This document shows positions 51,972 through 52,142 of a stretch of 64,000 nucleotides of DNA, piece by piece; position 1 is the stretch's first letter; each line of letters opens with the position of its first letter. This stretch comes from a virus. Lineage: Duplodnaviria > Caudoviricetes. The position numbers and the translations under genes were made by a program. The notes beneath the pieces were generated by a model that saw only the letters and a program-made list of their open reading frames with translations, searched no databases and had not been told where the DNA came from. The stretch is taken from positions 183,924 to 247,923 of the IMG/VR virus record IMGVR_UViG_3300028886_000037. One strand, 5' to 3'.

Positions 51972-52108
51972 AAAAAAGCCCAGTCCAGATAGGAGGTGAC
52001 TGGACTGGGCTTCCCACTTTTAACAGAACCCGAGAGGAATAAACCCAAAAACTCTCGGGAAGGAGAAGTAGGCCAACTGGCTAGACTGGCTCAGTTGTCC
52101 ATCTTCGT
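51972..52108 (-). ncRNA. candidate ~135-nt three-hairpin small RNA with anti-Shine-Dalgarno loop
   Basis: Promoter TTTACG-17-TATATT at 52114-52142; stems 52065-52106, 52029-52059 and terminator 51976-52012 with loop UCACCUCCUAU. Confidence 0.65.
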
Positions 52109-52109
52109 A

Positions 52110-52142
52110 TGTAAATATAAGAAACTTTATCGGGATCGTAAA
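52110..52142. promoter_or_regulatory. overlapping divergent promoters: minus-strand early promoter and plus-strand late-like TGTAAATA
   Basis: Motif matches. Confidence 0.6.

Follow-up and report, generated by a model that had tools for sequence, protein, structure and literature searches.

The locus described here lies in a window of 64,000 nt (the whole stretch of DNA that was analysed), which comprises bases 183924-247923 of a 247,923-bp IMG/VR virus record, 98% complete. Between a divergent gene on the plus strand and a late gene on the minus strand, a short transcription unit is predicted that consists of an early promoter and a structured non-coding RNA. The features are, in window positions:

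52163..52579, plus strand: divergent 138-aa gene, used as synteny anchor, with 47 homologues and conserved in the phage clade
about 52110-52119, plus strand: late-type core TAAATA, back to back with the early -10 box and overlapping it, in 11 of 11 slot variants compared
52114..52142, minus strand: early (host sigma-type) promoter TTTACG-N17-TATATT, of a genome-wide family of about 44 copies
51972..52107, minus strand: predicted non-coding RNA of about 135 nt, with a fold z of -4.33, no conserved ORF and same-slot homologues of 120-141 nt
52065..52106, minus strand: hairpin 1, with a purine-rich 5' end paired to the linker's first half
52061..52065, minus strand: second CUCCU motif, at the junction of hairpins 1 and 2 (the linker), in all three RNA versions
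52029..52059, minus strand: hairpin 2, an 8-bp stem with a 15-nt U/G-rich loop that is not anti-Shine-Dalgarno (anti-SD)
51972..52012, minus strand: hairpin 3, a 13-bp terminator stem with covariation, an 11-nt loop and then a U-tract
51947..51954, minus strand: T4-type late promoter TATAAATA, about 55 copies genome-wide

The early promoter belongs to a family with the pattern TTTA(C/G)-N19-TATATT, and after nearly all copies there is a ribosome-binding site (RBS) and then an ATG about 30 nt on. The only true family copies lacking a downstream RBS and ORF are the one at 52142-52114 and two promoters of tRNA operons. Relatives that have the RNA also have the promoter, its -35 element being degenerate in L114 and L156. 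Both RNA ends are predicted, the 5' end 7-8 nt past the -10 box and the 3' end at the U-tract. Comparison with relatives gave no conserved ORF on either strand of the RNA locus. The late promoter after the slot is also found in the relatives read that far; the gene behind it encodes an 866-aa late protein (51915-49315), and this promoter restarts transcription past the terminator of the RNA. The TAAATA core on the plus strand is retained even in a slot variant without the early promoter and is probably the promoter of the lone divergent gene, for which no PHROG match was obtained. Rumen RNA libraries contain the locus as assembled contigs, which cannot reveal RNA ends or strand: one X1 contig covers 51650-52090 and the next begins at 52137, and a low-depth X13 contig (51927-52155) crosses both predicted ends. 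These contigs, which do not give the level of the RNA either, were not counted as evidence, and the expression of a discrete transcript from the unit is a prediction.

The RNA folds into three hairpins at -54.7 kcal/mol, and none of 200 shuffles folded as well. The first-pass annotation, made from the same DNA, had described a consensus early promoter, three hairpins without a credible ORF and a 13-bp terminator stem with loop and U-tract, all of which are present as it stated. It had also read the linker and a hairpin-2 segment, UUAUUCCUCU, as anti-SD, and here the result is mixed. The CUCCU of the linker is kept in all versions and is the same motif as the exposed loop of the L156 RNA described below, but it is often paired (unpaired probability 0.05-0.74) and half of the linker is the 3' arm of hairpin 1. 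Changes in the basal stem of hairpin 1 among this genome, L008, L013 and L112 preserve pairing; its sequence is not the same between RNA versions. For hairpin 2, the complementary AGAGGAATAA does occur upstream of the genes at 4238, 11390 and 11979, but the CUCU is the 3' arm of the stem, with an unpaired probability of 0.15. In close relatives the segment reads UUAUUCGCCU or UUAUUCACCU with the 5' arm changed to match, and the match to the three RBSs is therefore specific to this genome and a coincidence; AGAGGAA is a common RBS in this phage (12/313). This seed and its three phage targets were rejected, being half of a stem and not conserved. The loop core of hairpin 2, UUUUGGGUU, is also retained in version 3 on another stem, and no complement to it was seen in the vicinity of start codons in host or phage.

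The loop of hairpin 3 is UCACCUCCUAU (51999-51989), 11 nt that contain ACCUCCU, and the stem is followed by six U. Among the 95 hairpins of the genome with at least 9 bp and a loop of 7-18 nt, it is the only one with CUCCU in the loop. It matches the 3' tail of Fibrobacteraceae 16S rRNA, GGAUUACCUCCUUU. Taken alone, ACCUCCU in one such sequence is moderately unlikely, as it appears in 0.5-2.5% of shuffles. The real evidence for the predicted anti-SD loop is its conservation.

The same slot was read in about 20 loci, anchored on the 138-aa gene. Three versions of the RNA were found, each with three hairpins in 120-141 nt between early and late promoters: version 1 in this genome, L008, L013, L112 and L155, version 2 in L003/L005, L115 and L157, and version 3 in L113 and L114. 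Between versions, hairpins 1 and 2 scarcely align and hairpin 3 aligns. The stem of hairpin 3 is paired in 104 of 104 cells, with compensatory changes on both sides in 8 of its 13 pairs. None of 500 shuffles reached the covariation score, in a control that ignores relatedness and with three independent stem versions, and slid controls were far lower. The loop core ACCUCCU is invariant in versions 1-3 and has an unpaired probability of 0.99-1.0 in each. Loops that vary on conserved stems had been named beforehand as evidence against the proposal, and the opposite was observed, a covarying terminal stem around an invariant loop, which supports the original reading of the locus as a predicted early non-coding RNA that displays an anti-SD loop under selection.

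Other occupants of the slot were also identified. L156:1770-1950 (minus strand) holds a fourth RNA of about 80 nt and other architecture, whose first loop exposes UCUCCUUC; the loop motif CUCCUU is unpaired with probability 1.0 and is complementary to an SD closely followed by AUG. In L004, L006, L120, L122 and L123 the slot contains an early ORF of about 66 aa and hairpins without an anti-SD loop, and L116 has the ORF on a contig that ends before the hairpin region. The slot is empty in L002, and the complete relative G003 has no such RNA. On this comparison of sequences the slot is an early cassette with exchangeable content, and the RNA is an accessory element, since in other relatives the slot holds a small ORF or is empty. 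The anchor-gene tree has too little resolution for a count of RNA gains and losses.

The ORF-type slots of L120 (2090-2200), L122 (2100-2220) and L123 (2080-2200), all on the minus strand, end in long-stem, large-loop hairpins whose loops share GCAUU, which is anti-AUG-like, the loop in L123, UUACCUUCUU, being close to an anti-SD. The hairpins may be 3'-UTR-derived relatives of the RNA. A CAUAUUU motif is single-stranded at differing positions in versions 2 and 3 (the hairpin-2 loop of L005 and L115, the linker of L113/L114); it could pair with AAAUAUG starts, but was set aside because its complement contains AUG and is trivially enriched at such sites. In IMG/VR, scans for exact matches and for patterns gave no copy of the RNA outside the clade, the other matches being ordinary RBSs read on the opposite strand. 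With the covariance model R1, run under strict filters and without a positive control, there was no second copy in this genome and none in G001, G003 (best E 0.9), G005, G006 or 151 Fibrobacteraceae genomes.

The phage genome encodes a Gp23-type capsid protein and UvsX and has T4-type late promoters and 37 predicted tRNAs, and is therefore that of a T4-like jumbo phage. An INPHARED search gave no match and thus no described phage similar to this one. The assemblies from which the relatives derive are from rumen and gut. The tRNA calls lie in L131 (genome 142045-155415) and include one Ala(AGC) and one with anticodon UUA (genome 153019-153091), which is ochre-suppressor-like. Genes for two RNA ligases, for a nucleotidyltransferase of the CCA/poly(A) type and for TnpB/IS605 are found at window 9436-10731 and 23757-24932 and at L132:6016-7266 and L132:8700-10367; the ligases and the nucleotidyltransferase suggest a capacity for tRNA repair. 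The terminase-like ORF at window 59668-60750 matches TerL profiles in its C-terminal part only, which suggests a split terminase.

The host is probably a member of the Fibrobacteraceae, as judged from gene and promoter similarities. Homologues 47-58% identical to the phage patatin are present in 28 of 101 Fibrobacteraceae genomes, a portion of the gene for the 866-aa late protein has 70% DNA identity to one genome of the family, and one relative of the phage carries a Fib_succ_major gene; neither this gene nor bS21 was found in the present phage genome. The TATATT -10 box is common to the phage early promoters and to leaderless genes of Fibrobacteraceae. No CRISPR spacer against the phage was seen in the 20 kb tested. 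Similarity of tRNAs was uninformative as a pointer to the host (about 80%), and a TnpB search led only to related phage contigs binned in unrelated MAGs. Related large phage contigs L134/L141, L142 and L143 (317, 266 and 89 kb) have been assigned to MAGs of Bacteroidaceae, Bacilli and Clostridia, which is probably a binning error. In 29 of the 33 Fibrobacteraceae genomes with a match, the 3' end of 16S rRNA is GGAUUACCUCCUUU, in which U replaces the usual C (L167, L169). The anti-SD of the family is intact and its genes use AGGAG, GAGG and AAGGA as SDs. Hfq was not found in three Fibrobacteraceae genomes.

The RBS classes differ between the early genes of the phage and the host sample, which comprises 1196 genes with crudely assigned starts (first ATG) from 1.6 Mb of one Fibrobacteraceae genome, possibly not that of the host. 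An AGGAC site precedes 21 of 39 early phage genes, counted as the first genes of early operons, and 11 of the 1196 sampled genes. The ratio of AGGAC to AGGAG is 21:9 in early phage genes, 11:112 in the host sample (p 2e-11) and 1:10 in late phage genes. The same bias is seen in G003 (18/31 early genes), which lacks the RNA, and it can therefore not have evolved for the RNA. The early genes of the clade have a private RBS, AAGGAC(C), in A/C-rich leaders, for example at window 56336, 28850 and 25302; this could be an escape from a GGAG-targeting RNA or nuclease.

The median duplex energy between loop and RBS is -4.4 kcal/mol for early phage genes, -6.4 for late phage genes and -7.0 for host genes with an SD. 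The RNA would therefore spare the genes made alongside itself, and early phage mRNAs, which had been proposed as targets, are the least likely ones. With the 16S tail, too, the early RBSs form weaker pairing. Only 7-12% of the sampled host RBSs form at least six contiguous pairs with the loop. For this reason, and because the 13-bp stem cannot open to extend the pairing, the broad silencing envisaged at first is doubtful. The host genes that pair best have unrelated functions (ThiF, Fe-ADH, ExbB, VWA), and no specific or coherent target set was found among the top-ranked genes of this one-genome sample. It had further been proposed that leaderless phage mRNAs are spared. The genes at 36558 and 21691 do look leaderless, but sparing them is not the logic of the RNA, as leaderless-like starts are rarer in the phage (4/313) than in the sample from the likely host (56/1196).

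These observations are brought together in a model, to which we give an even chance, of an anti-SD RNA that needs no chaperone and lowers the translation of host mRNAs with strong SDs, acting on a subset of messages and not as a global silencer. The host RNA polymerase would make the RNA soon after infection. Three stable stems would protect it, the last of them doubling as terminator and keeping ACCUCCU single-stranded in a loop of 11-13 nt. The loop would pair with SDs of the AGGAGG/GGAGGU type without a protein chaperone, in competition with the 30S subunit. Translation of strong-SD host mRNAs would be reduced, and possibly that of late phage mRNAs made prematurely, and the first early genes of the phage, mostly with AAGGAC sites, would be little affected. 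An exposed ACCUCCU on a stable scaffold fits chaperone-free pairing because the anti-SD of the family is intact, its genes use SDs and no Hfq was found. For 6C it has been shown that pairing can start in C-rich loops without a chaperone (PMC6486639). The AGGAC bias of G003, the small share of host RBSs that pair well and the unrelated functions of the best-pairing genes lead us to favour damping that is confined to mRNAs with strong SDs. The bias of G003 and the unrelated functions of those genes also weigh against the model, as does the weaker pairing of early RBSs with the 16S tail. Further, the late RBSs of the phage bind the loop nearly as well as those of the host, which would be costly, and 5-7 bp formed by a closed loop are a weak competitor of the ribosome. 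A more general form of takeover by a phage of virulent type, in which the copy of the 16S anti-SD represses SD-led translation as a class and phage early genes escape through AAGGAC, a variant SD that still serves the ribosome, is rather unlikely.

The loop could instead imitate the 16S 3' tail and titrate a protein that binds or cuts the tail, rather than pair with mRNA; Era, bS1/bS21 and an anti-SD-cleaving toxin RNase of the MazF-mt3 type are what we take to be candidates. In version 3 the match to the Fibrobacteraceae tail extends over 10 nt (UUACCUCCUU), the one-genome sample gave no coherent mRNA targets, and an accessory slot swapped between lineages resembles counter-defence cargo. However, versions 1 and 2 have UCACC where 29/33 genomes of the family have UUACC, the GAU or UUU flanks and the free 3' end are reproduced in no version, and the L156 loop is another pyrimidine sequence, so that what is kept is complementarity to the SD and not the exact tail. 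Such a decoy is improbable. Conservation of the loop also bears on the view that the element is only an insulator, a remnant of an early moron slot that ends early transcription, with an incidental anti-SD match and a loop that stayed the same through recent shared ancestry, through recombination or for some other cause. This would agree with the ORF and two large-loop hairpins, or nothing, in the slot of relatives, with the lack of the RNA in G003 and with the resemblance of hairpin 2 to a hairpin in the ORF-type 3' UTR of L120. Yet no terminator requires an 11-13-nt loop of fixed sequence, the loop remained unchanged through eight compensatory stem changes, the terminator loops of ORF-type slots are not anti-SD, and hairpins 1 and 2 likewise retain pairing. 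We consider a mere insulator unlikely.

The position of the RNA directly upstream of a late promoter raises the question of self-timing, in which it would restrain the late mRNAs of the phage, either in trans during the early phase or in cis when transcription reads through. In T4 the RBSs of e, soc, 49 and I-TevI are sequestered in early transcripts (PMC3014915). The loop binds late RBSs better than early ones (p 0.004-0.03), and version 3, with a poor U-tract, pairs with its downstream RBS at -9.0 kcal/mol. The corresponding energies are only -4.9 in this genome and -2.2 in L115, and loop and downstream RBS do not covary. The same loop precedes different downstream RBSs in this genome and in L112, and is therefore not matched to the neighbouring gene. 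T4-type late genes are silent early, which leaves little for the RNA to repress in trans, and a timing role is accordingly not probable. An element on the plus strand, either a GGA-rich sponge for CsrA/RsmA or a small ORF led by the AGGAGG of that strand, is highly improbable: GGA motifs and a 78-codon GTG ORF (51996-52232) are present, but the promoter and the U-tract are both oriented along the minus strand, and the start codon of the ORF lies inside the SD and the frame is shifted or absent in relatives.

To our knowledge, the mechanisms by which phages take over host translation are mostly proteins, and we know of few small RNAs of lytic phages with a known function. Fibrobacter is a main cellulose degrader of the rumen. 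If the damping model is true, an RNA made early and competing with the ribosome for SDs would be a minimal device for takeover or tuning and the first regulatory RNA for Fibrobacter phages; if repression extends to SD-led translation as a class, it would be an undescribed phage takeover of translation by RNA alone. The four natural versions of the RNA are built-in controls for reporters with SD variants. Should the RNA be only a terminator, or have a few specific targets, it would be one more uncatalogued structured phage RNA.

Rfam at the gathering threshold and ARAGORN gave nothing on the window. The best weak Rfam match was ar14 (23.1 bits, E 0.017, gathering threshold 58.8), and CcsR1 reached 11.7 against 65.3. 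RsaE/RoxS and RNAIII are C-rich-loop small RNAs of Gram-positive bacteria. As in these and in 6C (PMC6486639), the exposed C/U-rich loop could pair with G-rich RBSs without a chaperone; the RNA has the conserved single-stranded C/U-rich motif complementary to SDs that defines this class, and forms an independent non-coding transcription unit with predicted promoter and terminator and no conserved ORF. Unlike them, it has its seed in the terminator loop, where it equals the 16S tail, is encoded by a T4-like phage and not a chromosome, and shows no match to their sequences or Rfam models. With the cuckoo/ar14/CcsR small RNAs of Alphaproteobacteria (RF02344, RF02791; PMC4615179) it shares a length of about 120-140 nt and the plan of two to four hairpins side by side, in which the stems vary and an anti-SD-like loop is conserved. 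Those RNAs carry CCUCCUCCC in every loop, whereas here the motif is in the terminal loop only, as ACCUCCU, and the score is far below the gathering threshold. They are encoded on the alphaproteobacterial chromosome or megaplasmid, in contrast to a phage RNA with an early promoter and a likely Fibrobacteraceae host, and the cuckoo-type RSs0680a binds Hfq (PMC4615179), for which the likely host has no gene that was found.

Small RNAs of mobile elements that act by base-pairing, as is proposed for the present RNA, include c4 of P1/P7, which acts through loops (PMC12197685), SviR of PLE, for which covering of the RBS is predicted (10.1101/2022.04.08.487710), and a phage small RNA (10.1101/2024.10.31.621285). 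These have specific targets and target-specific seeds, in contrast to the generic anti-SD of the present RNA. It does not have the form of the T4-type cis leaders that sequester the RBS of e, soc, 49 or I-TevI, in which an arm overlaps the late promoter, as its loop lies 45 nt upstream of that promoter. The literature covered, with most subscription journals outside it, contained no description of this RNA and none of a phage RNA that mimics the 16S tail, and a search without a positive control gave no RegB match in this phage. T4 RegB (PMC3014915, PMC1702504) is nevertheless the counterpart in a T4-like phage of a function that sorts mRNAs by a GGAG-type SD: it is a protein that cuts the early GGAG SDs of the phage, whereas here an RNA is proposed to bind SDs and the early genes avoid GGAG. 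Compared with these systems, the element is, on its conservation, a real phage small RNA, not catalogued before, whose structure is conserved and whose anti-SD loop is under selection, and for which we infer a function in translation.
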